From a virus (Duplodnaviria > Heunggongvirae > Uroviricota > Caudoviricetes), in the IMG/VR virus record IMGVR_UViG_2541047122_000029: 39,214 bases of DNA, one strand, 5' to 3'. Shown here in pieces: positions 2,603 through 38,338 of the stretch. Under the pieces are notes generated by a model, which saw only the letters and a program-made list of their open reading frames with translations, had not been told where the DNA came from and did no database searches. A program made the translations under genes and the position numbers. The number at the start of each line of letters is the position of its first letter. Within the stretch, counting starts at the first letter, position 1.

Positions 2603-3535
2603 ATGACTGATATTAACGATGTAATCAAGACCATTGATGAACTTATTGATGGCGGCGTACTGACACAGTATGCCATCGCCAGAGAGGCGGGAATTTCCGA
2701 CGGCACATTATCGGCTTTCCGTAAGGGAAAATATAAAGGCGATAACGCTGCTGTGGCTGCTTCCCTGCGTTCCTGGTATGAGAACTGGAATAAACAAAGC
2801 GCACTGCCGGAACCGCCGCAGTTTGTGGAAACGCAGACAGTCCAGGAGCTGCGCACACTGTTTCAGGCGGTTCGTCTGATGGGCTGTATTAACGTTATTG
2901 TGGGCGTACCGGGTGTGGGTAAAACGGCCACTGCCCGTAATTACTGCCAGGAGCAACCAAACACCTGGATGATCACCCTGTCACCCGCGCACTCCAGCGT
3001 CACGGAGTGTCTGCTGGAGCTGGCCGATGCGCTGGGGATTGATTACACCCGCGCGAACAAAGGGGCATTATCCCGCGCCATCCGCCGTCGCCTGATGGGA
3101 ACGCGTGGACTGGTGATTGTGGATGAGGCGGATCATCTTGGTATTGACGGTCTGGAGCAACTCCGGGCAATTCAGGACGCCACGGGGATCGGGATGGTGC
3201 TTATTGGTAACCCGCGCGGATTGTTTAAAGGTGGACGCCGCGCCTTTGATGATTTATCGCGCCTGTTCAGCCGTCTTGCCCGTACAAAACAACTTCGCAA
3301 GGCCAAAAAGGCGGATGTGCTGGCCATTGCCAGGGCGTGGGGGATCAGTGGTGAGGCCGAGCTGGCCGTCATGCAGGCTATCGCTGAAAAGCCGGGAGCG
3401 TTACGCGTTCTGACACATACGCTTAACCAGGCGTGGCTCACCGCCAGCGGTGAAGGTGCGGCGCTGACAGAAAAACATATTAATGCGGCCTTTAAAGAGG
3501 TTTATACCAACCCTGAATTACTCTCACAGGTGTGA
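2603..3535 (+). CDS. B: Mu B-like transposition ATPase / target DNA activator
   Basis: 310 aa; N-terminal HTH, Walker A GVPGVGKT, IVDEADHL Walker B-like motif, conserved LPEPPQFVETQTV; matches Mu B organisation. Confidence 0.9.
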   Translation: MTDINDVIKTIDELIDGGVLTQYAIAREAGISDGTLSAFRKGKYKGDNAAVAASLRSWYENWNKQSALPEPPQFVETQTVQELRTLFQAVRLMGCINVIVGVPGVGKTATARNYCQEQPNTWMITLSPAHSSVTECLLELADALGIDYTRANKGALSRAIRRRLMGTRGLVIVDEADHLGIDGLEQLRAIQDATGIGMVLIGNPRGLFKGGRRAFDDLSRLFSRLARTKQLRKAKKADVLAIARAWGISGEAELAVMQAIAEKPGALRVLTHTLNQAWLTASGEGAALTEKHINAAFKEVYTNPELLSQV

Positions 3536-3537
3536 TT

Positions 3538-3759
3538 ATGGCGGTATTTTATATTCCTGATATTTACGGACGCTTTTACCTGGTTAATTTCGATAACGTG
3601 AAGGTGATTTCACTGGCCGAAAATAAAGAATGTGGCGATTTACTTTTTGAATTTAATGACCGCACACGAATGGTGATATCTGCCGGACTTGATCGCGAAG
3701 GTGCGACAGAAGTTTACAGCGGAATATGCCGTTCTGTTGGTGCGAAACAAGTCAGCTAA
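3538..3759 (+). CDS. Hypothetical early protein
   Basis: Track ORF 3532-3759 starts at GTG; first ATG is at 3538. Tightly packed after B. Confidence 0.5.
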   Translation: MAVFYIPDIYGRFYLVNFDNVKVISLAENKECGDLLFEFNDRTRMVISAGLDREGATEVYSGICRSVGAKQVS

Positions 3760-4026
3760 ATGAGGTGTTATATGAATATGCAATCCTGCGGTAACAAAAT
3801 GAATTTATTCGACTCCCTGAACAGCGCGCGCCGTCTGACCGAACTTGCCGGTGCGGTACTGGAACGCAGTAAGCGCTATCCGCAACGTTTTGCACTGAAA
3901 ACCACGCCGCCGGTAGGCAACGTGCAGGGAACCGGTGAAATTGAAATCACCATACAGACCAACGGCCTGCGCCGCCGTGTGAAGGCCACCCGCATCAGCG
4001 GCTGCACGGTTTACTGGGAGGTGTGA
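3760..4026 (+). CDS. Hypothetical early protein
   Basis: 88-aa ORF. An internal ATG at 3772 preceded by GAGGTG may be the true start. Confidence 0.5.
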   Translation: MRCYMNMQSCGNKMNLFDSLNSARRLTELAGAVLERSKRYPQRFALKTTPPVGNVQGTGEIEITIQTNGLRRRVKATRISGCTVYWEV

Positions 4027-4027
4027 G

Positions 4028-4309
4028 GTGAAAAAAAATCTCATTGCATGGGCGTGGTCGAGTGGTCTTATTGAGTTTGGTTACGTCCTGCCGGAAGGTG
4101 CATTGCCGATAGTTGCCGGAAAGCCTGCCACGGTACGGCATGTGATTGAGGTTATGGCGCGTCATGGACGTGATGAACAGGAGCAGTTACTGGTTCCGGG
4201 GATACCGGAAGCGGTGACGGAGGAAGAAGCCTTTAATGCCATGATTCGGTTCTGCCGTGAGGTCAGACGCCGGGTCAGTTATCCAAACAGAACGAGGACC
4301 AGAGGATGA
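4028..4309 (+). CDS. Hypothetical early protein
   Basis: 93-aa ORF, GTG start preceded by GGAGGTG; contiguous with neighbours. Confidence 0.5.
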   Translation: MKKNLIAWAWSSGLIEFGYVLPEGALPIVAGKPATVRHVIEVMARHGRDEQEQLLVPGIPEAVTEEEAFNAMIRFCREVRRRVSYPNRTRTRG

Positions 4310-4578
4310 GTAAAGTCGTACGCATTATTTTCGAATACAAGGAGCACGTTATCCATAAAAACGCGGATGGAACAGTGCGCATGGGGATAAGTCTGGACAT
4401 ACGTTCAACCGGGATAAAGCAGAAAGGTGATGGACCTGCCATGATTTTTGGGGTGGTTATGCTCGCGGAAAGCAGAGACTTTGCTGAACTTGTGGCAATG
4501 AAAGCCAGTGCGCTCATGAAAGATATGAGCATGCGTTCCGGGGTTATTAAAGGTAATGAATTTAATCAGCAGGGGTAA
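4306..4578 (+). CDS. Hypothetical early protein (paralog 1 of tandem pair)
   Basis: 90 aa; N-terminus MSKVVRIIFEYKEH... is paralogous to the next gene. Confidence 0.55.
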   Translation: MSKVVRIIFEYKEHVIHKNADGTVRMGISLDIRSTGIKQKGDGPAMIFGVVMLAESRDFAELVAMKASALMKDMSMRSGVIKGNEFNQQG

Positions 4579-4582
4579 TTCC

Positions 4583-4876
4583 ATGAGCAAAGTACGCGTT
4601 ATTTTTGAATTTAAGCATGTTTCGCATGACGAAAAACCGGCAGGCAATGACTGTGTTGAAGTGCATGAAAAGATTGGTGTGGATGTAAAAACAGAACGTG
4701 ATACGAATAACAGGCCGACGTCACTCTGTGACGTTTATGTAAGTATTCTCCAGTATCACAGTCCTGAAATTATTCAGTTTCTCTCAGCGGAATTTCAGGC
4801 ATCTGTACAGGCTTTTGGGGCGGATGCCATCATTAAACGCCACCGCGTGCATAAAGCATCAGGCACACTGCAATAA
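4583..4876 (+). CDS. Hypothetical early protein (paralog 2 of tandem pair)
   Basis: Internal ATG of track ORF 4556-4876 gives MSKVRVIFEFKH..., matching the start of the previous gene. Confidence 0.55.
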   Translation: MSKVRVIFEFKHVSHDEKPAGNDCVEVHEKIGVDVKTERDTNNRPTSLCDVYVSILQYHSPEIIQFLSAEFQASVQAFGADAIIKRHRVHKASGTLQ

Positions 4877-4887
4877 GGAAAAACAAA

Positions 4888-5418
4888 ATGGCAAAACGCG
4901 TTACAAAATTAAAGGCCGCAGCCGAGGCTGCACCGCAGACCCGCGAAGAGGTCAGCCGCGATATCCGCACCCTGGGCGATATTCAGCGAGAGGCGCTGCG
5001 GCTGGAAACGGCGATGAATGATGAAGTGGCAGAAATCACCGCCCGTTATACGCCGCAAATTGAAAACCTTAAAAAAGAAATCAAAGTGCTTTTTAAGGGG
5101 ATTCAGGACTGGTGCAAAACCAACCGAGATGAGCTGACGAACGGCGGCAAAACAAAAACTGCCAATCTGACCACCGGCACGGTGTCATGGCGGCTGGGAA
5201 ATCCATCATGCAGCGTCAGCCGTGATGTGGAAGGCGTGATTGAAATGCTGCGCCTTATGGGGCTTGAGCGATTCATCCGCACGAAAGAGGAAGTGAACAA
5301 GGAAGCCGTCCTGGCGGAGCCGGATGCGGTGAAAGGCATTGCCGGTATAAAGGTGAATAAAGGCGCTGAAAGTTTTTATGTCGAGCCTTTTGAACAGGAC
5401 GCCGGACTGAATAAATAA
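4888..5418 (+). CDS. gam: Gam-like host-nuclease inhibitor (DNA-end binding protein)
   Basis: 176 aa; ...RLETAMNDEVAEI..., ...NRDELTNGGKTKTANLTTGTVSWR..., ...FIRTKEEVNKEA... match Mu Gam as I recall it. Confidence 0.85.
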   Translation: MAKRVTKLKAAAEAAPQTREEVSRDIRTLGDIQREALRLETAMNDEVAEITARYTPQIENLKKEIKVLFKGIQDWCKTNRDELTNGGKTKTANLTTGTVSWRLGNPSCSVSRDVEGVIEMLRLMGLERFIRTKEEVNKEAVLAEPDAVKGIAGIKVNKGAESFYVEPFEQDAGLNK

Positions 5419-5515
5419 CACCACATTAAATCTTTAAATATCACATCGTTTTAATTATGGCGCTCGCGTCAGGGGACTGCCTGCGCCTGAAAGCTGAAAA
5501 TAAGGAATCGGAAAC

Positions 5516-6058
5516 ATGGCATATTTTTATTTCAAATTAGACATAGTGTACACAAATAAATATTTAACCGAATATCAGCGGGATGTTTTACCGCTACGCA
5601 ACAGTATTCTTCGGGCATTACTGAAAAATACAGGCGCTGCCGGATTGCGCTTAAAGCCGTTCGCCATGGACGTAATCAGTGAGTTTTATTTTTCTGGTTC
5701 TCTGCCTGCGGGCTGGCGTAAGCGCGATGATGTGGCTTTTATCGGGGGCGGACCGTGCTTTATTGCCAGACCTGATGAGTCATGCCCTGAAGGTCCGGCG
5801 ATTGCCGCAATGGTTGAAGCCGCTGAACGCGAGTTAAGAAAGCGTCCTGATTTCCTTGTCTGGCTCTGTGAAAAGCTGGGGGTAATGAGAATCCCCTCCA
5901 TGTTTAACACGGACTCCTGGTGGACCCCGTCACTCTCCCGTGATGCCCTGTGCGTGGTGTTTAAAGTAGGAACTTATGGCAGGGAAATAAAAGGGGGTAT
6001 TCCTGAAGAATGCCAGGAGATTAAACATTCTGAATATGTGGCGCTGACGGAGGAATAA
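5516..6058 (+). CDS. Hypothetical early protein
   Basis: 180-aa ORF after the only intergenic gap in the early operon (5419-5515); RBS TAAGGA upstream. Confidence 0.6.
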   Translation: MAYFYFKLDIVYTNKYLTEYQRDVLPLRNSILRALLKNTGAAGLRLKPFAMDVISEFYFSGSLPAGWRKRDDVAFIGGGPCFIARPDESCPEGPAIAAMVEAAERELRKRPDFLVWLCEKLGVMRIPSMFNTDSWWTPSLSRDALCVVFKVGTYGREIKGGIPEECQEIKHSEYVALTEE

Positions 6059-6061
6059 TTC

Positions 6062-6595
6062 ATGATTGATGCAAAAGTGCTTGAAGGGGTTAAAAACTGG
6101 CTGCGTATTTACGGACGTCTGACCTGCGGTATTCTGGCTGAAAAAATGAATATGCCGCCATCCTCCATGGTTTATTTTCTGCGTGATGCGGTTGATGCAG
6201 GCGTGCTGACGGAATGTAACGGTTTTTATGATATTCCGCGTCCCCGCCCGGTGCAGCCGGTTCGTCGCAAATGCAGCCAGGAGTCTGCGGCTGATGATGT
6301 TCAGTGGTGCAGCTTCAGAAAATCCCTGCCGTGGATTGAAGGGCATGATATTCCGTCGATGGCGTGGGAATTTGCTCAGGGCGTGCTGACCTGTGAAACC
6401 GTTTATGTGGTGGCTGAAGTTGATGAGCAGGCCATGAAAGAAGGCGTGCCCCAGTTTGTGATGTCGTATATCGACATCCGCCTGGGCGTCATTATCTGCG
6501 GTTTAAGCGGCTGGAATATCACCTCGCGCGTTCTGCGTTACCTGATTGTTGACCGGACGGCCGCGCCTGCCGGGATATCAGCGGAGGTGGCGTAA
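6062..6595 (+). CDS. Hypothetical early protein
   Basis: 177-aa ORF packed 3 nt after the previous stop. Confidence 0.6.
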   Translation: MIDAKVLEGVKNWLRIYGRLTCGILAEKMNMPPSSMVYFLRDAVDAGVLTECNGFYDIPRPRPVQPVRRKCSQESAADDVQWCSFRKSLPWIEGHDIPSMAWEFAQGVLTCETVYVVAEVDEQAMKEGVPQFVMSYIDIRLGVIICGLSGWNITSRVLRYLIVDRTAAPAGISAEVA

Positions 6596-7110
6596 TGTTC
6601 TTTAAAACATCAAACCCTTCCGCGCTGGCTGCGTGGCAAAAATACCAGCAGGACTGCCAGACGGTAAAAGATGAGGCGAAACGCCTTGAGGCCGTGCTGA
6701 ATGTTGCGTGCCGGTCGGTATTTGAATTCAGTATCAGTGGTTTTTGTTTTAAGGGACTGCGTTTTACGGAGGACAAATATCCTTTTCATCGTGATTTATG
6801 GCGAAAACCAACTGCGTCGAATGGCTGGAGCTGCACACCGCGCACATCACGTATTCCCAAAGCCCTGCGCGTTGCCTCTGACGAACTTAACAGTCTGTGG
6901 CGTGAATATTCGCCCGTCACGTATGCCAGAACCGATGCACTGTTGTTCTGGCTGGGCATTGATTTCTCGGCAATCCTGTTTGGCCCTGTGGAGTGGTTCT
7001 GCGTTGACGATGTGATTTACCTTCAGTGCGGCGTAAAACCCGCAAAACAGAAAATGACCGAAATTCTGTCTGATGAGTTTTATGCTGCTGAAAAGCGAGT
7101 CAGGGGGTGA
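6595..7110 (+). CDS. Hypothetical early protein
   Basis: 171-aa ORF; start overlaps previous stop (TAATG). Confidence 0.6.
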   Translation: MFFKTSNPSALAAWQKYQQDCQTVKDEAKRLEAVLNVACRSVFEFSISGFCFKGLRFTEDKYPFHRDLWRKPTASNGWSCTPRTSRIPKALRVASDELNSLWREYSPVTYARTDALLFWLGIDFSAILFGPVEWFCVDDVIYLQCGVKPAKQKMTEILSDEFYAAEKRVRG

Positions 7111-7113
7111 TGC

Positions 7114-7665
7114 ATGATGATATTACAACCCATGGGGAGAAAAGGCCGTGCACCCGCTCATGTTCGCGCATGGACACCTGAAGAAGATGCGCTGCTGATT
7201 GCGCTTTATCCATCCACCCCGGTTAAGGATATTGCTGTCAGGATAAAAAGAAGTTTCTGGGGTGTACATAACCGGATTGTTTTATTACGCGGTACTTACC
7301 CGGAGTTGCTCAAATGCAAACGCCTCAGATTTAAACCTGATGAAGATAAATTTATCCGAAAAAATGCCAGAACAATGACCGGTAAGCAAATAGGAGAATA
7401 TCTGGGGCGAGACCGGGATTCTGTCCACAATCGGGCGCGATATATTGGCGTAAGCATGAAAAAATACGGAGAGTTGCTGCCCTTCACCCGCATACCTGAC
7501 GATGATGTTCGTCTTATTCGTGAATTACGGGATGCTGAATCACCACGGCGTCTTACCTTTAGGGAAATCGGCGAGAAATTTGAATTATCCGAGGGCACGG
7601 TGAGTTTTATTTATCACCGTCGTCGGACTGCCGAAGATGTTGTATTACGGGAATTAATGCCATGA
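7114..7665 (+). CDS. Hypothetical protein with three tandem HTH-like repeats (putative DNA-binding)
   Basis: 183 aa; three repeats of about 45 aa (WTPEEDALLIALYP.., KPDEDKFIRKNARTMTGKQIGEYLG.., DDDVRLIRELRD..LTFREIGEKFELSEGTV); RBS GGGGGTGA upstream. Confidence 0.6.
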   Translation: MMILQPMGRKGRAPAHVRAWTPEEDALLIALYPSTPVKDIAVRIKRSFWGVHNRIVLLRGTYPELLKCKRLRFKPDEDKFIRKNARTMTGKQIGEYLGRDRDSVHNRARYIGVSMKKYGELLPFTRIPDDDVRLIRELRDAESPRRLTFREIGEKFELSEGTVSFIYHRRRTAEDVVLRELMP

Positions 7666-7973
7666 TAACGACATTATTTGTTGAATCAGATGAACCCCTT
7701 GTGTGTGCCGTCGGAATGCCGGTCTGTGGCGGAACGCTGACCGGTGTTTATTTCGGGGATTTGCGCGGTTATCCCTGGCATTCACTGAATGATGCTTTCC
7801 CGCCTGATATGGAGGCTGTCGTGCTGATTGTTCAGTATGGTGACCAACAGGAACTGCGCATCGGCCATATGGGGTATGAAGGCTTTTTTATTGATGAAGA
7901 AACCGGAGCCTGCCTTGAAGATGAGGACGGACAGGTGACGCACTGGTGCCATATTTCAGCTTTACCGGAATGA
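7662..7973 (+). CDS. Hypothetical early protein
   Basis: 103-aa ORF overlapping the previous stop by 4 nt. Confidence 0.55.
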   Translation: MITTLFVESDEPLVCAVGMPVCGGTLTGVYFGDLRGYPWHSLNDAFPPDMEAVVLIVQYGDQQELRIGHMGYEGFFIDEETGACLEDEDGQVTHWCHISALPE

Positions 7974-8338
7974 CGGGAGGTGAATGCGTGAGAAGTTATA
8001 TTGATAATGAAAAACTGAAGACAATCAGCGACTGTCTTAGCTTGCTGGCAAAAATAAAAGAAACCATTGAAGAGATTAAATTTCAGCTTGAATACGAACC
8101 CTGTGGCGATGATACATGGCGTAACTCTGCCAGAAAAGCACTGGCTGTCTTTCAGAAACAACGCCGGACTGTTGAATACCGCCTTGCTGTATTGCGCCAG
8201 GAGGAAAAGGAAAGAAATATAAGACGTCATGAACTCGTTAATGATTTTCTTGTTCGTGAATTAAAGGAGCGTGTGCCGGAGTCGGTATTTTTTGAGTGTG
8301 AGGCTGTTGCCCGTAGCAAAGCACTGGAAACTGATTAA
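7970..8338 (+). CDS. Hypothetical early protein
   Basis: In-frame ATG at 7970 overlaps the upstream stop (ATGA); track ORF 7946-8338 begins earlier; alternative GTG 7988 after GGGAGG. Confidence 0.5.
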   Translation: MTGGECVRSYIDNEKLKTISDCLSLLAKIKETIEEIKFQLEYEPCGDDTWRNSARKALAVFQKQRRTVEYRLAVLRQEEKERNIRRHELVNDFLVRELKERVPESVFFECEAVARSKALETD

Positions 8339-8350
8339 ACAGGCAGGTGA

Positions 8351-8686
8351 ATGATGAGTATTGAATTAAGATCGTCTTATGAATATCGTAAAATTCTCAT
8401 CGCCGGAGGCATGAAACCGGAAGATGCAGAAAAAATTGTTTCTTTTATGGATAAAGAATGTGACAAACGGGATATGCCAGAAATTATTATGGATGACATG
8501 ATTCTGCATTCAGCCGTAGCGTTAAGCCCGTTATGGATTGTGCATTCTCTTGCTGAAATTGCCAAAGGCACCGATAAACAGGCAGCTGTTGCTGCCCTTC
8601 AGACGCTTAATGAAATGCGTATATCTCCACGCCCGACATTAATACATATGATTCTCTCCAGTATGGAGGATAAAGCAAATGAATAG
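8351..8686 (+). CDS. Hypothetical early protein
   Basis: 111-aa ORF; AGGTGA RBS before the start. Confidence 0.55.
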   Translation: MMSIELRSSYEYRKILIAGGMKPEDAEKIVSFMDKECDKRDMPEIIMDDMILHSAVALSPLWIVHSLAEIAKGTDKQAAVAALQTLNEMRISPRPTLIHMILSSMEDKANE

Positions 8687-8876
8687 TCTACCCGCTGGAT
8701 GGGCGCGGCCACTAATGGCCAGGAAGCATCATTTTTTTAAAACAGGCGAAAATATCAGTATATGTGGACGGTGGTTATATCTGGCTCATAATCGCGAGCC
8801 GGATACATTTGAAAGCCCTGATGACTGTGCCGAATGCCGCAGAAGAGTGAATAAGGAGAAAGATAATGGACAATAG
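8679..8876 (+). CDS. Hypothetical small Cys-containing protein (possible zinc ribbon)
   Basis: 65 aa; Cys at ICGRW and CAEC; overlaps both neighbours. Confidence 0.45.
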   Translation: MNSLPAGWARPLMARKHHFFKTGENISICGRWLYLAHNREPDTFESPDDCAECRRRVNKEKDNGQ

Positions 8877-9162
8877 TTCTCTGTTGTTCTGGTGCTTATA
8901 TATCACATCCTTTTTCGGCGCATTTGTTATTACCCGGTGGTTATGTCGAAAAATCATCTGCTTTTTTGATAAAAGACATCCGGTTGAACGGGCGGCTGAT
9001 GCGCTCATTCAGCAGGCCATTGTGTTATATAGCGGTGAATTTTTCTGCCGAATAACAACCAGAGATGGCTGGCACATAATGATTATTCCACCAACACACC
9101 ATGCCCGGTGGGATGAGGCAGAAAAGGCTTTCCATGTCCGTAAAAAGGTAAATACGGTATGA
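8866..9162 (+). CDS. Hypothetical protein with N-terminal transmembrane helix
   Basis: 98 aa; hydrophobic N-terminus LLFWCLYITSFFGAFVITRWL. Confidence 0.5.
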   Translation: MDNSSLLFWCLYITSFFGAFVITRWLCRKIICFFDKRHPVERAADALIQQAIVLYSGEFFCRITTRDGWHIMIIPPTHHARWDEAEKAFHVRKKVNTV

Positions 9163-9668
9163 GAGGAAAACTGATATCCGCCATTCATGTGGCAAAGCGC
9201 GAGCTTGCCCTGGATGATGAGACTTATACATCCGCGCTGCTGGCAGCCACCGGCAAAACCAGCTGCCGGGATATGTCACCGGATGAGTTATCCCGCGTGC
9301 TGGATGTTTTCAAAAAACGCGGTTTTAAAGTGCGCCAGAAGCCGGTTAACCAGGCCTTAAAACCGGGTACGGTGACCGCCAAAATTCGTGCCATCTGGAG
9401 GGTGATGCACCGGCAGGGCTTTATCTCTGATGGTGCGGAAACCGCCCTTAACCGCTGGGTGAAATCGCAGACGGCCGCGCAGAACGGTGGCGAAGGTGTG
9501 GCAAACTGGCAGTGGCTGGAGCAACACCCCGCCCTGGCCTCAGATGTGCTGGAGCGTCTCAAGCGATGGCACCGCCGCAAAATGCTGGCCGCGATGGGAA
9601 TGCCCGAACGCACGCTGATGGGGTATGACGCCGTTTGCAGGCAGTATGAAAAATCACTTCCCCGTTAA
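9159..9668 (+). CDS. GemA-like protein (Mu gp16-like)
   Basis: 169 aa; N-terminal ...LISAIHVAKRELALDDETY... resembles the Mu GemA family as I recall it; last gene of the early operon, before a strong terminator. Confidence 0.55.
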   Translation: MRGKLISAIHVAKRELALDDETYTSALLAATGKTSCRDMSPDELSRVLDVFKKRGFKVRQKPVNQALKPGTVTAKIRAIWRVMHRQGFISDGAETALNRWVKSQTAAQNGGEGVANWQWLEQHPALASDVLERLKRWHRRKMLAAMGMPERTLMGYDAVCRQYEKSLPR

Positions 9669-9672
9669 CCCC

Positions 9673-9706
9673 AAATCCCGCCACAGCGCGGGATTTTTAT
9701 TTTAAA
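9673..9706 (+). terminator. Rho-independent terminator ending the early operon
   Basis: Perfect 9-bp stem AAATCCCGC (9673-9681) / GCGGGATTT (9688-9696), 6-nt loop, then TTATTTTAAA. Confidence 0.8.
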
Positions 9707-9737
9707 CTTACCGGGAACGCGAGAACCGGAGGCTGAT

Positions 9738-10163
9738 ATGGCAGAAACTCAGATGAGCATGTTTGGTGGTGACAGTGAGCAACTGCACGCCCTTATCGAC
9801 CGCCTTGATGACATCCCTGATGATGTTCTCAAAAAGAACTGGCCACGGACCCTGTCAGAACTGGTTGAAGTCACCGGCGCAGAACTTCAGCGTCAGGGGA
9901 TTGAGCCGGTACTGGCCGGTAAACTGGCACGCAAGGTGGCTGCGGCTCAGGCCGCCTATATGGGCGGACGGGGTTATTACCTGCCGGTCGGGGAATCTCT
10001 CTTTGCCGAGCTGCGAAACAATGAGATATTTTCGCGCTGGGACCGGGGCGAGAAAATTGAATCCCTTCGCCGACATTACCGGATGTCAGAAACCCAGATT
10101 TATACCGTCATACGTGAACAGCGCCGTCTGCATCTGGCAAGAACGCAACCGCCACTTTTCTGA
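9738..10163 (+). CDS. Mor/C-family transcriptional activator (middle/late gene activator)
   Basis: 141 aa; resembles Mu Mor/C (acidic N-terminus, C-terminal HTH ...SETQIYTVIREQRRL...). Only one member of this family is present in the window. Confidence 0.75.
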   Translation: MAETQMSMFGGDSEQLHALIDRLDDIPDDVLKKNWPRTLSELVEVTGAELQRQGIEPVLAGKLARKVAAAQAAYMGGRGYYLPVGESLFAELRNNEIFSRWDRGEKIESLRRHYRMSETQIYTVIREQRRLHLARTQPPLF

Positions 10164-10167
10164 TATT

Positions 10168-10181
10168 CCGCAAAGCCTGCC
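10168..10181 (+). promoter_or_regulatory. Candidate activator-binding motif of the lysis/late promoter
   Basis: CCGCAAAGCCTGCC, 54 bp upstream of the endolysin ATG; near-identical motif at 18095-18108 upstream of gene I. Confidence 0.4.
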
Positions 10182-10234
10182 GCCTTTCCTTCACCGTTAC
10201 GCTGACTCAGAGAACATCATGAGACAGCGTAACA

Positions 10235-10735
10235 ATGCCAAAACTCCCCGCACCACTGCGTAAAAAGCTGATTGCCCTTGTTCTGGCCGGTGCCGGGACG
10301 TTCACGATTGCCACGCATTACACCGGTTACTGGGAAGGGAAAGAAAACTCCACGTATATCGATCCCACCGGTACACCCACCATCTGTTACGGCCATACCG
10401 GCCCGGATGTGAAACCGGGTATGACCCTGACGGATGAAGAATGCCTGGAACTACTGGAAAAGGACATGAAATGGGCCTTTGCGGCCATTGATCGGCGTGT
10501 TCAGGTGCCGCTTACCCGTGGTCAGACGGTGGCGCTGGCTTCGTGGATCTTCTGGGCTGGTGAAACGAACTTCCGCAACTCCACGCTTCTGCGCCTGATC
10601 AATGCCGGGCAGATGCCCGCGTCCTGTAAGCAGTATATCCGCTGGATTTATTCAAAGGGGGTGAAACTTCCCGGCCTTGAGGCCCGCCGTTCGGCGGATG
10701 AATGGTTATGTCGCTACGACTTGCCGAAAGTCTGA
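10235..10735 (+). CDS. SAR endolysin (phage lysozyme, T4-lysozyme/GH24-like)
   Basis: 166 aa; N-terminal weakly hydrophobic signal-anchor-release segment LIALVLAGAGTFTIATHY; YWEGKENSTYIDPTGTPTICYGHTG contains the Glu-Asp-Thr catalytic pattern. Confidence 0.85.
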   Translation: MPKLPAPLRKKLIALVLAGAGTFTIATHYTGYWEGKENSTYIDPTGTPTICYGHTGPDVKPGMTLTDEECLELLEKDMKWAFAAIDRRVQVPLTRGQTVALASWIFWAGETNFRNSTLLRLINAGQMPASCKQYIRWIYSKGVKLPGLEARRSADEWLCRYDLPKV

Positions 10736-11198: not shown

Positions 11199-11400
11199 AT
11201 GGCTGGCTGACTGCCTGGTCCCTCCTGCGCCGGAGCCGTTCACGTTTGGGGCATCGGTCACTTACAACCTGCAACTGCTGGCGGTGATCAAGAACTGCAA
11301 CGTGGACAAGGCCAGTATTCGTCGTCTGGAGGCGCGGCGACAACATGAATTTACTGATATGGCCGGAACGCCTGCTGTTCCGGCAGGAAAGACGAAGTAA
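11029..11400 (+). CDS. o-spanin (Rz1-like outer-membrane lipoprotein), overlapping the i-spanin in another frame
   Basis: Internal ATG of track ORF 10834-11400; signal peptide with lipobox LIGC, Pro-rich mature region VKYVPVKPVPIP; starts inside the i-spanin gene and extends past it. Confidence 0.7.
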   Translation: MKSNRTFSTPRSNRALSAGRWQQCLLPLPLFLMMWLIGCAGPSVKYVPVKPVPIPAEWLADCLVPPAPEPFTFGASVTYNLQLLAVIKNCNVDKASIRRLEARRQHEFTDMAGTPAVPAGKTK

Positions 11401-11410
11401 GGAAAAAGGT

Positions 11411-11638
11411 ATGGATGATTCAGATCGTGCTCAGGCTGTGATGGAGCGGGGATCAGAACGCGCCCTTTGTAACCGGCTGACACGTAAGCGCCGGGCAATG
11501 GATGCTCCGGGTAGACGTATTTGCGCGGACTGTGGCGGAGAGATCCCCGCCGCGCGTCTTGTTGCTGTGCCGGATGCCATCCGTTGTGTGAACTGCCAGA
11601 ACATCATGGAGGCCCGTCATGTGGGTCAGCATCGTTAA
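11411..11638 (+). CDS. TraR/DksA-type C4 zinc-finger protein
   Basis: 75 aa from ATG 11411 (RBS AAGGAAAAAGG); CADCGGEIP...RCVNCQ four-Cys motif. Confidence 0.6.
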   Translation: MDDSDRAQAVMERGSERALCNRLTRKRRAMDAPGRRICADCGGEIPAARLVAVPDAIRCVNCQNIMEARHVGQHR

Positions 11639-12797: not shown

Positions 12798-14461
12798 TGA
12801 ATAACGCCGAAGAACTCTCCCCCTTACTGACGAATACCGTCTCCACCCGCAAAATTGATCTGGCCGGTGAAAAAGCCCTGCTGGGCGTGGATGTGCCGGA
12901 CAGCCTTGATTTGCCCGGTGATATGCCGGTATTTCTGGATTATCAGGCCCGCTGGTTTGAGGATGAAAGCGAGGTCTGCATCGCGGAAAAATCCCGCCGC
13001 ACCGGGCTTACCTGGGCGGAAGCCGGGCGTAACGTCATTACCGCTGCAAAACCGAAGCGGCGCGGTGGCCGCAATGTGTTTTATGTGGGGTCAAAGCAGG
13101 AGATGGCGCTGGAATATATTTCTGCCTGTGCACTGTTCTCCCGTGCCTTTAACCAGCTGGCAGATGCTGATGTGTATGAGCAGACCTTCTGGGATCGGGA
13201 TAAAAAAGAAGAAATTCTGACCTACATGATCCGCTTTCCGAACAGTGGATTCAAAATTCAGGCACTGTCTTCCCGTCCATCAAACCTGCGCGGCCTTCAG
13301 GGGGATGTGGTGATTGATGAAGCCGCGTTCCACGAGTCACTGGATGAGCTTCTCAAGGCGGCAATGGCGCTTACCATGTGGGGCGCGCGCGTGCGTATTA
13401 TCTCCACGCATAACGGCGTCGATAATCTGTTTAATCAGTACATTCAGGAAGCCCGCGAAGGGCGCAAGGATTACAGCGTCCACCGCATTACCCTGGATGA
13501 TGCCATTGCGGACGGGCTGTACCGTCGTATCTGTTATGTCACCGGCCGCGAATGGTCACCGGAAAGCGAGCAGAAGTGGCGTGATGATCTCTACAAAAAC
13601 GCCCCGACCCGTGAGGATGCCGACGAGGAATACGGCTGTATCCCGAAAAAATCCGGCGGTGCCTATATTCCTCACGCGCTTATTGAAATGGCGATGATCC
13701 GCGACATCCCGATTCTGACGTTTGAAGCCCCGGACGACTTCATCAGCCGTGCCGCATGGCTGCGTGAATCGGAAGTTTTAACCTGGTGTGAAGAACATTT
13801 AAAACCGCTTACAGAGAAATTAAATCCCCGTTCCCGCTTCAGCTTCGGGGAAGATTTTGCCCGCACCGGTGACCTGTCCTGCTTTGTGCTGCTGGAAATC
13901 ACCGAATCCCTGGCAAAACGCGAGGTGTTTCGCGTGGAGCTGCGTAACCTGCCATATGCCCAGCAGGAGCAGGTGATGATGTACATCCTGACCCGCGTTC
14001 CGGCGCTGACTGGCGCGGCGTTCGATGCCACCGGTAACGGCGGCTATCTGGCCGAAGCCGCGCTGCTGGCCTTTGGCCCGGACATCATCGACTGCGTGAT
14101 GTTATCGCCGAAGTGGTACGGCGAGTGGATGCCAAAACTGAAGGCCGAGTTTGAAGATCAGAATATCCTCGTCGCCCGCCATCAGACCACGCTTGATGAT
14201 TTGCGCCATGTGAAGGTGGTGAACGGTATCCCGCAAATCGACAAGGGGCGCACGAAGGACCAGAACGCAACGGCTGTGAACGCCCGCCGCCATGGTGATT
14301 TTGCCGTGGCGCTCTGTATGGCAAACCGGGCGTCATACATGGAGGGTTTCATCCTGGATGAATCAGCCTGTCAGGCGCTGCCGGAGCGGTCGCGGGCCAT
14401 GGAGGGCGGTTATCGTGATGACGATGAGGCATATCATGAATTTGATCGGGGGTGCTGGTAG
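12797..14461 (+). CDS. Terminase large subunit (Mu gp28-like)
   Basis: 554 aa; ATPase region followed by nuclease-like C-terminal region; position before the portal. Confidence 0.85.
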   Translation: MNNAEELSPLLTNTVSTRKIDLAGEKALLGVDVPDSLDLPGDMPVFLDYQARWFEDESEVCIAEKSRRTGLTWAEAGRNVITAAKPKRRGGRNVFYVGSKQEMALEYISACALFSRAFNQLADADVYEQTFWDRDKKEEILTYMIRFPNSGFKIQALSSRPSNLRGLQGDVVIDEAAFHESLDELLKAAMALTMWGARVRIISTHNGVDNLFNQYIQEAREGRKDYSVHRITLDDAIADGLYRRICYVTGREWSPESEQKWRDDLYKNAPTREDADEEYGCIPKKSGGAYIPHALIEMAMIRDIPILTFEAPDDFISRAAWLRESEVLTWCEEHLKPLTEKLNPRSRFSFGEDFARTGDLSCFVLLEITESLAKREVFRVELRNLPYAQQEQVMMYILTRVPALTGAAFDATGNGGYLAEAALLAFGPDIIDCVMLSPKWYGEWMPKLKAEFEDQNILVARHQTTLDDLRHVKVVNGIPQIDKGRTKDQNATAVNARRHGDFAVALCMANRASYMEGFILDESACQALPERSRAMEGGYRDDDEAYHEFDRGCW

Positions 14462-16050
14462 TGGGACGCATAATTGATCTTGACGGAAAACCTTTCTCCT
14501 TTGACCCGGAGATGCAGAGTGCCGTGCTGGATATTCCGCAGATTGCCAGCCGTTATATTGAACATCCGGCCTCGGGTATCACCCCGAACCGGGCGGCGCA
14601 GTGCCTTCGCGGGGCTGAACGTGGCGATCTGATTGCCCAGTCCGATCTGGCCGCTGACATTGAAGAAAAGGATACCCACCTTTTTGCAGAGCTGGGCAAG
14701 CGACGTCTTGCCATTCAGGGCGTGCCCTGGAGTATTGAGCCGCCACCGAACGCCAGCGCGAATGAGAAAAAGGACGCGGAAATGCTCGACGAATATCTTC
14801 ATTCCGCCGACTGGTTTGATGCCATGCTGTTTGATGCCACCGATGCCATCCTGAAGGGCTATTCCTGTATGGAGATTGAGCACGGGATGCTCGGTAAAAT
14901 GCACATCATCCGCGCCATCCGCTGGCGTGACAGCGGGCATTTCTGCCTTAACCCGGATGATTTGAGCGAACTGCGGCTGCGTGACGGCAGCCATGCCGGG
15001 GTGGCGTTTCAGCCCTTTGGCTGGATAGTGCATCAGTCACGTTCACGCACCGGTTACGGCGGCGCAACGGGGCTTGTCAGGACGCTTATCTGGCCGTTCA
15101 TTTTCAAAAACTATTCCGTGCGTGATCTGGCTGAATTTCTGGAGGTGTACGGCCTGCCGATGAAGGTCGGGAAATACCCGTCCGGGGCAACACCGGAGCA
15201 GAAAAGCGCCCTGATGCGGGCGGTGATGGATATCGGTCGACGTACAGGCGGGATCATCCCGGCCGGGATGTCGCTGGAGTTTCAGGCGGCAGCGAACGGT
15301 CAGGCCGATCCGTTTGAAACCATGATTTCGTGGGGGGAGCGTTCCATCTCCAAAGCTATCCTCGGCGGCACGCTGACCACGGAAGCCGGAGACAAGGGCG
15401 CGCGCTCGCTGGGTGAAGTGCATAACGAGGTGCGCCGGGAAATCAGGGATTCTGATTTACGTCAGCTGGCCGCCACGCTGAACCGCGATCTGGTGTATCC
15501 GCTGTATGCCCTGAACACCGCCCACGCCATAGATATCCGTCGCCTGCCGCGTATCTGTTTCCAGACAAAAGAGCCGGGGGATATCACCAAAATCACCAGT
15601 GCGGTGATGCAGCTCAGTACGGGGATGGATATTCCTGATCCCTGGGTACGGGAGCAGACCGGTATTCCACAGCCTGCCCCCGGTGAAGCCATCTTCCGTG
15701 TCCGTCAGAGTGGCAATGAACCTGCTCAGACAGACAAAGAGATGCCACCGGAAAAACAGGAGAAGACAGAGCAGACAGCGCTGGCTGCCAGACTGCCGGA
15801 AGCGAAGAGCAGCCCCCGAGATGAACTGGACGACATGGGGGACGCGGTGCCTGCCCGCCGGTTACAGGAGGCCATCGACCCGGTACTGGAGCCGGTCATT
15901 GAAGCCATCAGAACGCGGGGGCTGGCGGAGGCACTGGCAGACCTGCCTGCCCTTTACCGTGAAATGGATGATTCCCGCCTGATGACGCTGCTCAGTGATG
16001 CCATGTTTGCTGCGGAAATGAAGGGGATGCTGGATGGCACAGGGGATTGA
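14452..16050 (+). CDS. Portal protein (Mu gp29-like)
   Basis: 532 aa, GTG start overlapping terminase stop; acidic C-terminus; conserved position. Confidence 0.8.
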   Translation: MLVVGRIIDLDGKPFSFDPEMQSAVLDIPQIASRYIEHPASGITPNRAAQCLRGAERGDLIAQSDLAADIEEKDTHLFAELGKRRLAIQGVPWSIEPPPNASANEKKDAEMLDEYLHSADWFDAMLFDATDAILKGYSCMEIEHGMLGKMHIIRAIRWRDSGHFCLNPDDLSELRLRDGSHAGVAFQPFGWIVHQSRSRTGYGGATGLVRTLIWPFIFKNYSVRDLAEFLEVYGLPMKVGKYPSGATPEQKSALMRAVMDIGRRTGGIIPAGMSLEFQAAANGQADPFETMISWGERSISKAILGGTLTTEAGDKGARSLGEVHNEVRREIRDSDLRQLAATLNRDLVYPLYALNTAHAIDIRRLPRICFQTKEPGDITKITSAVMQLSTGMDIPDPWVREQTGIPQPAPGEAIFRVRQSGNEPAQTDKEMPPEKQEKTEQTALAARLPEAKSSPRDELDDMGDAVPARRLQEAIDPVLEPVIEAIRTRGLAEALADLPALYREMDDSRLMTLLSDAMFAAEMKGMLDGTGD

Positions 16051-17960: not shown

Positions 17961-18094
17961 TTGTTTAAGGTATGCAAATGCATTACCTTACCCCCTTCAG
18001 GCGCGTGTCGTGATTTTCTAACCTGTATTTAACGGGCTTTAAAATCTGCGTGAAGCGCCTTTGTATTTTTCCCCTGGAAGCACTTCCTGAAATC

Positions 18095-18108
18095 CCGCAA
18101 AACCCGCC
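18095..18108 (+). promoter_or_regulatory. Candidate activator-binding motif of the head-gene late promoter
   Basis: CCGCAAAACCCGCC in the 176-bp gap upstream of gene I; shares CCGCAAARCCYGCC with 10168-10181. Confidence 0.4.
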
Positions 18109-18136
18109 CTGAAAATTCCCGGCTTATGCTGCCGGA

Positions 18137-34186: not shown

Positions 34187-36226
34187 ATGACGTCCAAATG
34201 GGTTCAACTATCATCAATGCCCGGAAACTTTACTGTTAAAGTTTCCGGTGGTACAGCGGCATTTCTTGAGGCTCCCTTTCCTCCGGCCGAAACAAAAGGA
34301 GGAATGACATTTGCTGACTGTCTCATCAGTTTTAATACACGGGATTGCCTGTGGGTAAGGCCAGTATCCGGTGATCCGAGTGTGGAAATTACCGGAGCGG
34401 GTATTGGTGCGGTCATTCCGTTAAGTGCTGATGTTGCCGGTACTGCTGAACCGTCAGACTGGGATAATGCTGAAACACATACCCGTCCGTCAGGAAATGA
34501 AACTGCTTCCAGCTCCCCTTCCTGGTATTACGTGGTGGTTCTTGCTGGTCAGTCAAACGGTATGGCTTACGGTGAAGGTCTGCCACTGCCGGAGACATAT
34601 GACCGCCCCGAACCGCGTATTATGCAGTTAGCCCGTCGCAGTACAGTCACGCCGGGAGGTAAAGCCTGTCAGTATAACGACATCATTCTGGCCGACCACT
34701 GTCTGCATGATGTGCAGGATATGAGTGGAAAAAATCACCCGAAAGCGGATGTGGCTAAAGGGCAATATGGCACCGTGGGTCAGGGGCTTCACATTGCCAA
34801 AAAACTGCTGCCGTTTATTCCGGCAGATGCGGGGATTCTGCTGGTTCCCTGCTGCCGTGGTGGTTCTGCATTCACGGCGGGTGCTGACGGCACGTACAGT
34901 GACAGCACGGGTGCTTCAGAGGACTCAGCCCGCTGGGGTGTGGATAAGCCGCTGTATAAGGACTTAATCAGCCGGACAAAAGCGGCACTGGCGAAGAACC
35001 CGAAAAACCGCCTGCTTGCTGTGGTGTGGATGCAGGGCGAGTTTGATATTGATGCGAAGCCGACGGAGCATTCTGCGCTGTTTCTGGCGATGGTGGAAAA
35101 ATTCCGCGCAGACCTGGCTGAACAGGCGGAACAGTGTACCGGTGGCAGTGCTGCTGGCGTTCCGTGGATTTGTGGTGATACCACGTATTTCTGGAAACAG
35201 AAAAACGAACAGGCATACCAGGCAATCTATGACGGCTACAAAAATAAAACAGATAAAAACATTCATTTCGTCCCATTAATGACAGATGAAAATGGCGCGA
35301 ATGTACCCACCAACAATCCGGCAGAAGACCCGGATATTGAATCCATTGGTTATTACGGCTCAACGTGGCGTAACAGTGCCGCCACCTGGACATCTACGGA
35401 CCGGGCCAGCCATTTCAGTTCATGGGCACGTCGTGGGATTATTTCCGACCGTCTGGCCACGGCAGTTCTGACTCATGCGGGGCGAACCACAGTAAAAGCC
35501 GATGTTCCATCTTCTGAAACTGAAGCACCAGTGCCGTCACCTTCAGAAACTGAAGCAGTAACCACAACACTGCTGTCTTACCGTGTCAGTGAGTCAGAAG
35601 GAAATCTGAAAGCCCAGGGCTGGGAGCCGGCTGGCGGTAAAGCTGAAATTATCAGTGATGCAGGAGGCACAGGTGGTAAGGCAATGAAACTGACCAAGGA
35701 AACAGGTAAATCATCCTGGTATCTGGATCATGATGCCGGTACTGGTGCTGAACTGCTGAAAAATGGTGGTTTAATCAGTTGTCGTTTTAAAGTACCGGGC
35801 GACCTGGTGGCAAACCAGTATGTCATGGCGCTTTACTGGCCGGTTTCCTCTCTGCCGCAGGGTGTCACCCTGACAGGGGATGCAGGGAATAATCTGCTGG
35901 CATCGTTCTACATCCAGACAGACGCAAAAGACCTGAATGTGATGTACCACAATGCAAAAGTGGCAACAAATAACCAGAAACTGGGAACCTTTGGTGCATT
36001 TGATAATGAATGGCATACGCTGGCCTTCCGTTTTGCAGGAAATAACAGCCTTCAGGTTATTCCGGTTATTGATGGTCAGGATGGTGCCGCGTTTACCCTG
36101 ACGCAGTCACCAGTAGGAACTTTCCCGGTGGACAAACTCCGCGTAACGGATATCACAAAAAATGCAACTTACCCGGTGCTGATTGACAGCATTGTGGTGG
36201 AAGTGAAAAAAGCGGTAACAGAATAA
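34187..36226 (+). CDS. Multidomain SGNH/SASA-type carbohydrate esterase with Pro/Ser/Thr/Glu-rich linker and C-terminal lectin-like domain (cargo gene)
   Basis: 679 aa; AGQSNGMAYGEG (catalytic-Ser GQSN block), WMQGEFD and DRASHF motifs match sialate O-acetylesterase-type domains as recalled; linker PSSETEAPVPSPSETEA; no N-terminal signal peptide; sits between gin and com/mom, where Mu has no gene. Confidence 0.75.
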   Translation: MTSKWVQLSSMPGNFTVKVSGGTAAFLEAPFPPAETKGGMTFADCLISFNTRDCLWVRPVSGDPSVEITGAGIGAVIPLSADVAGTAEPSDWDNAETHTRPSGNETASSSPSWYYVVVLAGQSNGMAYGEGLPLPETYDRPEPRIMQLARRSTVTPGGKACQYNDIILADHCLHDVQDMSGKNHPKADVAKGQYGTVGQGLHIAKKLLPFIPADAGILLVPCCRGGSAFTAGADGTYSDSTGASEDSARWGVDKPLYKDLISRTKAALAKNPKNRLLAVVWMQGEFDIDAKPTEHSALFLAMVEKFRADLAEQAEQCTGGSAAGVPWICGDTTYFWKQKNEQAYQAIYDGYKNKTDKNIHFVPLMTDENGANVPTNNPAEDPDIESIGYYGSTWRNSAATWTSTDRASHFSSWARRGIISDRLATAVLTHAGRTTVKADVPSSETEAPVPSPSETEAVTTTLLSYRVSESEGNLKAQGWEPAGGKAEIISDAGGTGGKAMKLTKETGKSSWYLDHDAGTGAELLKNGGLISCRFKVPGDLVANQYVMALYWPVSSLPQGVTLTGDAGNNLLASFYIQTDAKDLNVMYHNAKVATNNQKLGTFGAFDNEWHTLAFRFAGNNSLQVIPVIDGQDGAAFTLTQSPVGTFPVDKLRVTDITKNATYPVLIDSIVVEVKKAVTE

Positions 36227-36231
36227 AAAAA

Positions 36232-37139: not shown

Positions 37140-37410
37140 TTTGTTCCAGGTCCAGATAGCTGTAACTATCTGGACCTCCCTTTATGTAGTATCCTGTTGA
37201 TTTGAAACATACTACATATACGCGCGATCCTACCTTCACTGTATAAAAAGTCAATAAAATGATCATTTTATGATCGTTTTCACCACCTAAGTCTTCGTTT
37301 TCTTTAAGTAAATAATCACCGCCCTGAATCATTGTTGATGACTTTTCAATCTATTTGTTGTATCAATTAAACAAATCGAATCGATCGTTTTTGTCGATCG
37401 ATTGCATGAG
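37140..37410. promoter_or_regulatory. com/mom upstream control region (palindromes plus GATC cluster, likely Dam-methylation-sensitive promoter)
   Basis: AT-rich. 12-bp inverted repeat AGGTCCAGATAG (37148-37159) / CTATCTGGACCT (37166-37177); 9-bp inverted repeat ATGTAGTAT (37184-37192) / ATACTACAT (37209-37217); GATC at 37226, 37261, 37272, 37383, 37396. Confidence 0.6.
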
Positions 37411-37446
37411 AAAGGCATCAACAACAAAGCAGGAGGTTATGCGGCC

Positions 37447-37647
37447 ATGTATCGAAACATACGGTGCCGACACTGCAATAAGCTACTGGCACGGGCCAGT
37501 TTCAGTTATCTGGAAGTAAAATGTCCGCGCTGTAAAACCCTCAATCAAATCACATCTCCGAGCGCCACAGAGCACCCCACATACACAAGGAAATCCTGTC
37601 GTGGGGAACAGAAAGCAAGTCACATCCCGTATCATCAGCACGCCTGA
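37447..37647 (+). CDS. com: Com-like zinc-finger translational activator of mom
   Basis: ATG 37447 (RBS AGGAGG) inside track ORF 37402-37647; [13 protein letters not shown]...[12 protein letters not shown] matches Mu Com (IRCKNCNKLLFKA...IRCPRCKRH) as I recall it; overlaps the next gene. Confidence 0.75.
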
Positions 37648-38338
37648 ACTTATTCGCTATAACGACAATATCGTTGGTTATGGCTCCCGTGAGTTGCGGG
37701 TTGAGACAATAAGTTGCTGGCTGGCCAGACTGGTCATCGTCAATAAACATTACAGCCACCGTTTCGTAAATAACTCCTACCTTCATCTGGGCATATTTTC
37801 AGAACGGGAGCTGGTTGGCGTAATGCAATGGGGCTATGCCCTTAATCCAAACAGTGGTGCACGCGTCGTAACGGGCACGCGGAACCGTGAATATATGGAG
37901 CTTAACCGGTTATGGCTGCATGACTGTATGCCGAGAAACTCCGAATCAAGGGCAATCAGTTACGCGCTCAAGCTAATCAGGCAGCTTTATCCGCAGGTAC
38001 AGTGGGTTCAGTCGTTTGCAGATGAGCGTTGTGGCTGTCTTGGTGTCGTGTATCAGGCAAGCAATTTTGATTATGTAGGCAGCCACGAATCAACATTCTA
38101 TGAACTTGATGGCGAGTGGTATCACGAGATTTGCAGGAATGCCATTAAACGAGGCGGACAGCGAGGTGAACATCTGAGGGCTAATATCGACAGAGCCAGT
38201 GTTCATAAATTCCGTCAGTTTCGTTACATCCGGTTTCTGAACAAGAGGGCCAGAAAACGCCTCAACACAAAGCTATTCAAAGTCCAGCCTTACCCAAAAC
38301 CACAAACAGTTAAAACTGGTTTAAAAGAGAGTGAGTGA
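37601..38338 (+). CDS. mom: Mom-like DNA modification protein (anti-restriction)
   Basis: 245-aa ORF overlapping the end of com; ...[16 protein letters not shown]...[23 protein letters not shown] resembles Mu Mom as I recall it. Start uncertain (GTG 37601 in track). Confidence 0.75.

Follow-up and report, generated by a model that had tools for sequence, protein, structure and literature searches.

[quoted passage not shown] The early-Mor-C-late relay of Mu is the textbook model for transposable phages. The best explanation overall for the arrangement found here, which we hold with slightly more conviction than doubt, would be a cascade of two tiers in which the terminator acts as the gate and is overlapped by a promoter that lacks a -35.

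A single Mor/C-family gene in an Sp18-type prophage

The stretch of DNA under analysis (the window, 39,214 nucleotides) is assigned to a Mu-like E. coli prophage of the Sp18 type. Strain 2010C-3347 of E. coli carries a prophage with 100% identity to it, and 231 of 5,426 complete genomes of the species contain a close copy, with many O157:H7 or other Shiga-toxin-associated serotypes among the genomes listed; the same element is on record as a 'Mu-like phage' inserted in Stx phages. The prophage appears to be of the type of Sakai prophage Sp18 (PMC2669165), the expression of which has been reported at gene level only, by microarray (PMC2669165) and as read counts (PMC13502914). Its left end lies ~1.2 kb beyond the window start, so that the repressor gene falls outside the window. 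The window holds the early gene ner (191-439), transposase A (441-2531), B (2603-3535), gam (4888-5418), a Mu gp11-like gene and, closing the early operon, gemA of the gp16 family (9159-9668, + strand, stop codon at 9666-9668; Pfam GemA, 5.1e-30; RefSeq 'gp16 family protein'). The first late gene is the endolysin gene lys (10235-10735, + strand; Pfam Phage_lysozyme, 6e-37), which is followed by Mu-type head and tail genes, the invertase gene, com and mom.

The activator gene begins with an ATG preceded by GGAGG at 9728-9732. Residues 34-140 of its product match positions 2-107 of the 107 in the Pfam profile PF08765 (Mor) at 2.8e-32 and 111.3 bits (cut-off 24.9), the protein matches PHROG 532 ('late transcriptional activator') at 3e-45, and the RefSeq annotation of the identical gene agrees on the start and gives the product as 'Mor transcription activator family protein'. 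The coordinates and description of a Mor/C-family activator in the original prediction were therefore correct. Mu Mor and Mu C are 37% identical to one another. The activator is 39% identical to Mu C end to end (4e-35, 105 bits) and 27% identical to Mu Mor (3e-14, 51.6 bits), and searches against PDB chains gave 1e-26 for C and 2e-9 for Mor. A better score to Mor than to C was obtained for only 4 of 143 retrieved family representatives, a set that is biased because it was gathered with a C-like query.

The likeness to Mu C (gp21; PDB 9L0X, 9VW8) extends to length (140 aa in Mu C), to the linker G-G-R-x-x-Y-x-P-x-G, to the contact residues S110, Q113 and Y115, to the N-terminal QxxMF and C-terminal QPxLF motifs, and to the position before lys. 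Mu Mor (gp17; PDB 1RR7) belongs to the same family and its gene likewise comes immediately after gemA, but Mor is without the C-terminal QPxLF. The beta-strand linker residues described as invariant in C (G70, G71, Y75, P77 and G79; PMC2582627) have their counterparts in G76, G77, Y81, P83 and G85 of the activator, and in a 40-sequence alignment G76, Y81 and P83 are invariant and G77 is nearly so. The DNA-contacting residues of the HTH of C are R98, S110, Q113, Y115, Q116 and R120 (bioRxiv 2025.05.02.651988); by alignment the S, Q and Y are retained in the activator, while the remaining three of the six positions differ (E105, T123 and E127, corresponding to R98E, Q116T and R120E). The HTH fold is presumably kept, whereas the DNA specificity probably differs from that of Mu C, and given the three altered contacts the site of the activator is probably not the TTAT-N6-ATAA of Mu. 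The termini carry QMSMF, with S where D or E is expected, and QPPLF, a resemblance at the level of motifs only to the clamp-binding motifs of the family (N-terminal Qx[D/E][L/M]F, C-terminal QPDLF; PMC12867686).

The gene context agrees with this assignment. C-type traits are the closer relationship to C than to Mor and the location directly upstream of lys, which starts 72 bp downstream; Mor-type traits are absent, the gene being downstream of the hairpin, with no second family member and no middle operon, since the next gene is lys. By these comparisons the protein is a C-type late activator, the predicted counterpart of Mu C. In Mu, however, C comes fourth in a middle operon that is transcribed from the Mor-dependent Pm and ends in its own terminator, whereas the window gene stands alone with no terminator before lys; and mor of Mu lies upstream of the early terminator and overlaps gemA, whereas the window activator lies downstream of the terminator.

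The original prediction recognized only one family member and offered, among other possibilities, that a second activator is one of the unassigned early proteins. A family profile of 146 members (143 of 150 collected representatives together with Mu Mor, Mu C and the window protein) was searched against the full six-frame set of 905 ORFs, taken from stop to stop with a minimum length of 25 aa. It gave one match, at 9669-10160 (E = 1.5e-49), the next best having E = 1.9, while in the first 12 kb of Mu, used as a positive control, the same profile recovered both C (2.5e-49) and Mor (5.3e-35). The two related loci that reach the prophage left end beyond the window (L002 and L003) each contain a single Mor/C match. 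The uniqueness of the gene is thus established, and no second homologue was detected among the early ORFs. Sixteen of the 19 ORFs between B and gemA (3532-9162) carry no Pfam assignment, which leaves room in principle for a highly diverged second paralogue. We regard this as hardly credible given the negative six-frame search with its Mu control, the lack of any Pfam Mor match at E <= 1 in the other early ORFs, and a maximum of 3.8% probability (for the generic HTH of the ORF at 7114-7665) when the Mor/C profile was aligned by hhalign with 21 other ORFs; a second activator among the unassigned early proteins finds no support from the Mor/C family.

The original prediction also implied that a lone activator is an anomaly. 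We took a census of 83 loci on viral contigs, with up to 10 kb on each side, around homologues from four sub-families, and found a single Mor/C match in 81; one locus has a second, partial copy in addition and one a weak second match, and in the sample only Mu itself has two full-length copies. Further scans for related loci (P0097, P0098 and one scan of genome contigs) found none. A GemA-C pair is described in Shewanella phage MuM16-1 (PMC8541194), and in Pseudomonas phage Fc02 gemA-mor closes the early operon, the mor homologue being within the early pE operon (PMC9936078). A lone activator is therefore the ordinary state of Mu-like prophages, and the gene found here, already annotated as such, belongs to a known family in a known kind of element. 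The census suggests that the two-activator cascade of Mu is an exception among Mu relatives, the Mor-C relay being a peculiarity of the Mu genus where its relatives use one C-type activator. The idea that one protein serves both roles holds insofar as a sole activator is the best fit; it fails as a merger of roles, given that the gene is of the C type and that single activators are common.

Single-activator phages such as Shewanella MuM16-1 and Pseudomonas Fc02/B3 are like the window in that one Mor/C gene beside gemA drives the later genes; unlike the window, several of them have the activator translationally coupled to gemA inside the early operon, without a terminator. In one distant sub-family of the census gemA overlaps the activator start in many loci, again with no terminator, whereas the Sp18-type enterobacterial lineages have a conserved terminator between gemA and the activator, with the hairpin always after gemA. 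In another sub-family (P0096; L044-L063), where gemA and the activator are ~2 kb apart, a conserved block AATGTGCGCATAAAATGG...AATCGGCGCACCGCTTTTTCTGTTTT is found ~40-100 nt upstream of the activator ATG; it has a long-range inverted repeat and a T-run that comes within ~12-25 nt of the ATG, so that this boundary is organized in another way there.

The hairpin between gemA and the activator gene

The hairpin (9673-9696, + strand) starts five bases past the gemA stop codon and ends 42 bp before the activator ATG. Its arms, AAATCCCGC (9673-9681) and GCGGGATTT (9688-9696), enclose the loop CACAGC and form a stem of 9 pairs, 5 of them G-C, with a 6-nt loop and 9 U in the next 10 nt, the form of an intrinsic terminator; the fold has an energy of -13.5 kcal/mol (z = -4.1). 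The sequence downstream is TTATTTTAAA, including TTATTTT, and the T-tract TTTTTATTTT (9694-9703, + strand), which ends 35 bp before the ATG, would act as the terminator tail and, were there a promoter here, also as a T-rich spacer just upstream of its -10. Of the terminator-like sites that a scan listed on the + strand of the early region, this one had the longest stem, together with a T-run. The claim that the gene is downstream of a strong terminator is thus confirmed as to form and to position after gemA, and from the same two features the hairpin at 9673-9703 is probably the early terminator. Given the A-run upstream and the T-run downstream the hairpin is symmetric, and it could terminate transcription in both directions.

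The scan detected no terminator-like site between the activator and lys (10164-10234), so that nothing but the hairpin would hold early transcription back from the activator and lysis genes. Such a role as sole barrier fits the strength and conservation of the hairpin. Rfam gave no match in the window.

The arms are invariant in 7 sequences from divergent lineages while the loops vary, and there are no compensatory changes. Identical arms are present in the window, in a second E. coli lineage whose activator has 84-88% identity, and in L039, L042 and L043, of which L039 has an activator ~57% and L042 one ~49% identical to that of the window. The loops are CACAGC, CGGTCAGA, ATTATC and TAATCG, and the flanks and leaders also differ among lineages. 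Within the E. coli lineages TTATTTTAAACTT follows the right arm identically in 34 of 35 loci, and the ~19 nt beyond it exist in two unrelated versions.

That the sequence of the arms and not just their pairing is preserved would be expected if the inverted repeat were mainly an operator, at which the prophage repressor, GemA or a host factor shuts an activator promoter in the lysogen, the terminator shape being secondary. The dyad would lie at ~-40 to -17 of the putative promoter described below, a typical position for a repressor. Yet a search of the window allowing up to 3 mismatches revealed no credible second copy of the full dyad (the other match, at 976, is transposase coding sequence), every feature of an intrinsic terminator is present, including the A- and T-runs, and in relatives the hairpin also ends inserted genes on the reverse strand; we consider a primary operator very unlikely. 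Stems of A-run plus CCCGC are common in enterobacterial terminators and one more is found in the window at 36229, so that the invariance of the arms may reflect terminator optimization and not protein binding. Other copies of the 9-mer AAATCCCGC were rejected as further sites: those at 12989 and 24375 are both coding, the counterpart of the former being a conserved EKSRR terminase motif in all lineages, and the copy at 36229 is the other terminator just mentioned.

Promoter-like sequence and insertions at the early/late boundary

Proteins of the Mor/C family activate sigma-70 promoters that have no -35, and they do so from a dyad with its centre at -43.5 (PMC4287176, PMC2582627). Abutting the T-run of the window are two overlapping -10-like hexamers on the + strand, TATTTT (9698-9703) and TAAACT (9703-9708), with no match to a -35 and a predicted start at ~9710-9716. 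The window hexamer is mediocre, matching at 4 of 6 positions, and a sigma-70 scan found no -35/-10 pair at the junction. In L039, L042 and L043 the corresponding hexamers are TATACT, TATACT and TATAAT, 3-4 nt after the arm. Across four divergent lineages the T-run is thus followed within 3-6 nt by TAAACT, TATACT, TATACT or TATAAT, at a nearly fixed offset, and the leaders that follow the hexamer are 23-33 nt long and include a ribosome-binding site. We infer from this pattern a promoter at 9698-9708. The hairpin centre would be at ~-26 to -31 from the predicted start, as against -43.5 for Mor and C, and the poor hexamer, the absent -35 and a dyad at about -30 instead of -43.5 call for caution in reading the site as a promoter.

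The corresponding junction of Mu provides a comparison. After mor comes the hairpin AAAGCCGG-TTAAT-CCGGCTTT (9176-9196) and then T7. The positions -57G and -54A and a 16-bp Mor site of 5-6-5 organization are published (PMC4390567, PMC4287176); checked on the Mu sequence, they put the Mor site at 9173-9188, the -10 of Pm (TATCCT) at 9211-9216 and its +1 at 9224, so that Pm overlaps the hairpin after mor. The hairpin itself was rejected as the Mor site, since the 5-6-5 description and -57G/-54A put that site 5 bp upstream, where it overlaps the left arm only (PMC4390567). The two junctions are alike in having a GC-stem hairpin and T-run after the last early gene, overlapping a -35-less promoter (putative in the window), and the Pm leader is also short, at about 24 nt (PMC4390567). 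They differ in that the -10 of Mu is 14 nt beyond the T-run and the Mor site AGTAA-AGCCGG-TTAAT (-51 to -36) overlaps the left arm, whereas in the window the T-run runs directly up to the -10-like hexamer and a Mor protein that could bind is lacking.

Further evidence comes from relatives with additional genes at the boundary. Three independent accessory genes were found between gemA and the activator, each bracketed by two copies of the hairpin: one of 113 aa on the reverse strand in strain M1 and L028, a different one of 140 aa, also on the reverse strand, in L021, and one of 140 aa with a signal-peptide-like N-terminus on the forward strand in L042. None of the three has a Pfam match. The insertion regions are 3570-4240 in L004, 2566-3330 in L021, 8830-9520 in L028 and 9375-9965 in L042. 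The activator-proximal copy of the hairpin always retains the T-run and the -10-like hexamer, while the gemA-proximal copy does so in L042 only. The boundary between early and late genes looks like a recurrent insertion spot, and the hairpin module marks both that boundary and the site at which accessory genes are inserted in these prophages.

In L027 a ~1.44-kb element (8494-10000) lies inside the hairpin, so that the left arm is cut off from the other parts of the module. Its ends are TAATGCCGATCAG.../...CGGCATTA and it comes with an 11-bp duplication, GCCACAGCGCG; the ends and the length of the duplication look like those of IS4.

These observations bear on how the activator is first made, for which readthrough had been one of the original suggestions. 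In its simplest form the hairpin would be solely a terminator, early transcripts that escape it would carry the activator and lys, and the resulting trickle would set the late delay. The canonical terminator, the mere 35 bp from T-run to ATG and the lack of a -35 or of a called promoter all agree with this, as does the other branch of the family, in which gemA overlaps the activator start and the activator is simply the last early gene, and the mor homologue of Fc02 is likewise part of the early pE operon (PMC9936078). In the relatives with a reverse-strand gene and two symmetric terminators, however, it would require double readthrough against antisense transcription. Terminators are generally thought to need a U-tract of roughly 8 nt, and TTATTTTAAACTT is invariant well past that length; the -10-like hexamer, the offset of which hardly varies among the four divergent lineages, also counts against pure leakage. 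Pure leak-through is a serious rival, which we regard as distinctly possible though not probable. The reverse-strand insertions with their doubled terminators argue that a promoter exists, and together with the conserved hexamer after the T-run they argue that there is more to the expression of the activator than readthrough.

A promoter at the hairpin could instead depend on an early regulator outside the Mor/C family that plays the part of Mor. The candidate is the ORF at 7114-7665 (+ strand), which encodes an early HTH protein of 183 aa that is not Mor/C-like; it matches PHROG 323 ('transcriptional regulator, D5-like', 6e-58), gave repeated weak HTH/Myb-like matches with Pfam HTH below threshold, and is the only other predicted regulator of the early region. 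Nearly every locus of the E. coli lineages has it, but phmmer (E <= 1e-5) did not detect it in L037-L043, which keep the hairpin, the T-run and the -10 module, and this makes its involvement unlikely. Moreover, the RefSeq product label of Mu gp9 is also that of a 'D5-like' regulator, a label shared with the window protein, and yet Mu has both Mor and C, which argues that such a protein is by itself no substitute; nor was a shared site found.

The two-tier cascade that we favour would proceed from early to late without the three tiers of Mu. The early operon (ner, A, B ... gemA) would end at the strong symmetric terminator at 9673-9703, and this terminator would impose the delay for which Mu relies on its Mor step. 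The first, low-level activator would come from readthrough of the early transcript, from the weak -35-less promoter (TATTTT/TAAACT, 9698-9708), or from both, and the activator would then turn on the promoters of lys and gene I (head protease) through a common 32-bp element. Counting against this explanation, a constitutive promoter for an activator that triggers lysis would harm the lysogen. Were the gate and the overlapping promoter real, they would account for how late timing is set without Mor, and would suggest that the cascade of Mu originated when a duplicated copy of the activator was placed upstream of a pre-existing terminator. The conserved cassette of terminator and promoter-like sequence, reused around inserted genes, is in our view modestly more interesting than the gene count.

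Candidate late promoters, possible autoregulation and other features of the window

The 32-bp element, CACTT..CTGA.A..CCGCAAA.CC.GCC, is found at 10153-10184 and 18080-18111, in each case 17 nt before a -10-like hexamer, and ends with CCGCAAA(G/A)CC(T/C)GCC. At lys the candidate promoter (10168-10203, + strand) consists of CCGCAAAGCCTGCC, 17 nt and TACGCT (10198-10203), and at gene I (18080-18130, + strand) the common element is followed after 17 nt by TATGCT (18125-18130). A matrix made from the lys and I sites scores 38.6 and 39.3 at them and 14.4 at the next best site in the window, and the two elements are likely the main targets of the activator. No element of this type was seen before the tail genes or com/mom, and upstream of com no convincing mom promoter of the lys/I type was found.

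On the Mu sequence, Plys, PI and Pmom share the arrangement ATAA, 6 nt, 18 nt and -10; at the window lys and I sites it is CAAA, 6 nt, 17 nt and -10, and the promoters of lys and I in relatives adopt the same frame, with for example TTAA-N6-GTAA, TCCC, 18 nt and TATCCT or CACACT in L039. The candidate lys promoter has the same layout as Mu Plys, and in both CAGAGAA follows the -10. The Mu C site TTAT-N5-6-ATAA is absent from the candidate late promoters; its two matches in the window (37038 and 37650) are in or near coding sequence by mom, are in number within chance, and were rejected as promoters. At the candidate gene I promoter (18125-18139) the predicted -10 ends only 6 nt before the annotated ATG (18137), and likewise in L039, L042 and L043; either the protease-gene mRNA is leaderless or the true start codon is further downstream.

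A likeness to the part of the lys/I element nearer the promoter is seen in CAAATCCCGCC, the left hairpin arm, which suggests that the activator may also boost its own promoter. The resemblance is contained in CCCCAAATCCCGCC (9669-9682, + strand): the pattern CCSCAAADCCBGCC, which was derived from the three sites, has exact matches only at 9669, 10168 and 18095, and the hairpin site fits the frame of the late promoters with 16 nt to TATTTT or 21 nt to TAAACT. The full 32-bp matrix, however, scores 11.2 at the hairpin, within the range of shuffled sequences (mean maximum 13.8), and we downgraded the idea of autoregulation because of this; upstream of the activator-proximal hairpin copies the sequence is not conserved. 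Activation of its own promoter by the activator is thus no more than a possibility, from a likeness of 11-14 nt that was chosen post hoc.

A more elaborate reading, which we put forward tentatively, would give the hairpin a dual use, as a terminator in RNA and, in DNA, as a promoter of the late type (CAAATCCCGCC, T-tract and -10) bound by the C-like activator. Readthrough would trip a self-amplifying switch that replaces the Mor-to-C relay, and the module would be a portable cassette at which inserted genes dock. Mu Plys and Pmom have a T6 stretch directly before the -10 (PMC4461284).

Several other features of the window were observed. A gene of 679 aa at 34187-36226, between the invertase gene and mom, has a sialate O-acetylesterase-like SASA domain and DUF6645, with a minus-strand terminator after it; the gene has the look of cargo more than of a phage function. 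In the stretch 37333-38338, com (Zn-ribbon, 4.7e-13) and mom (4.5e-77) are preceded by a cluster of GATC sites and the 7-bp inverted repeat ATTTGTT-N10-AACAAAT; this is reminiscent of the Dam-dependent control of mom in Mu, but a Mu-type C site is absent. In the RefSeq annotation of the identical prophage the DUF935 portal-like gene is given as frameshifted (14461-16015; L003 16362-17916), so that this copy may be defective; the ORF list gives a 532-aa frame at 14452-16050 for the portal-like gene. Finally, a TraR/DksA-type zinc-finger gene lies at 11345-11638 among the lysis-region genes downstream of the activator, and its product could be an RNA-polymerase-binding modulator of late transcription.
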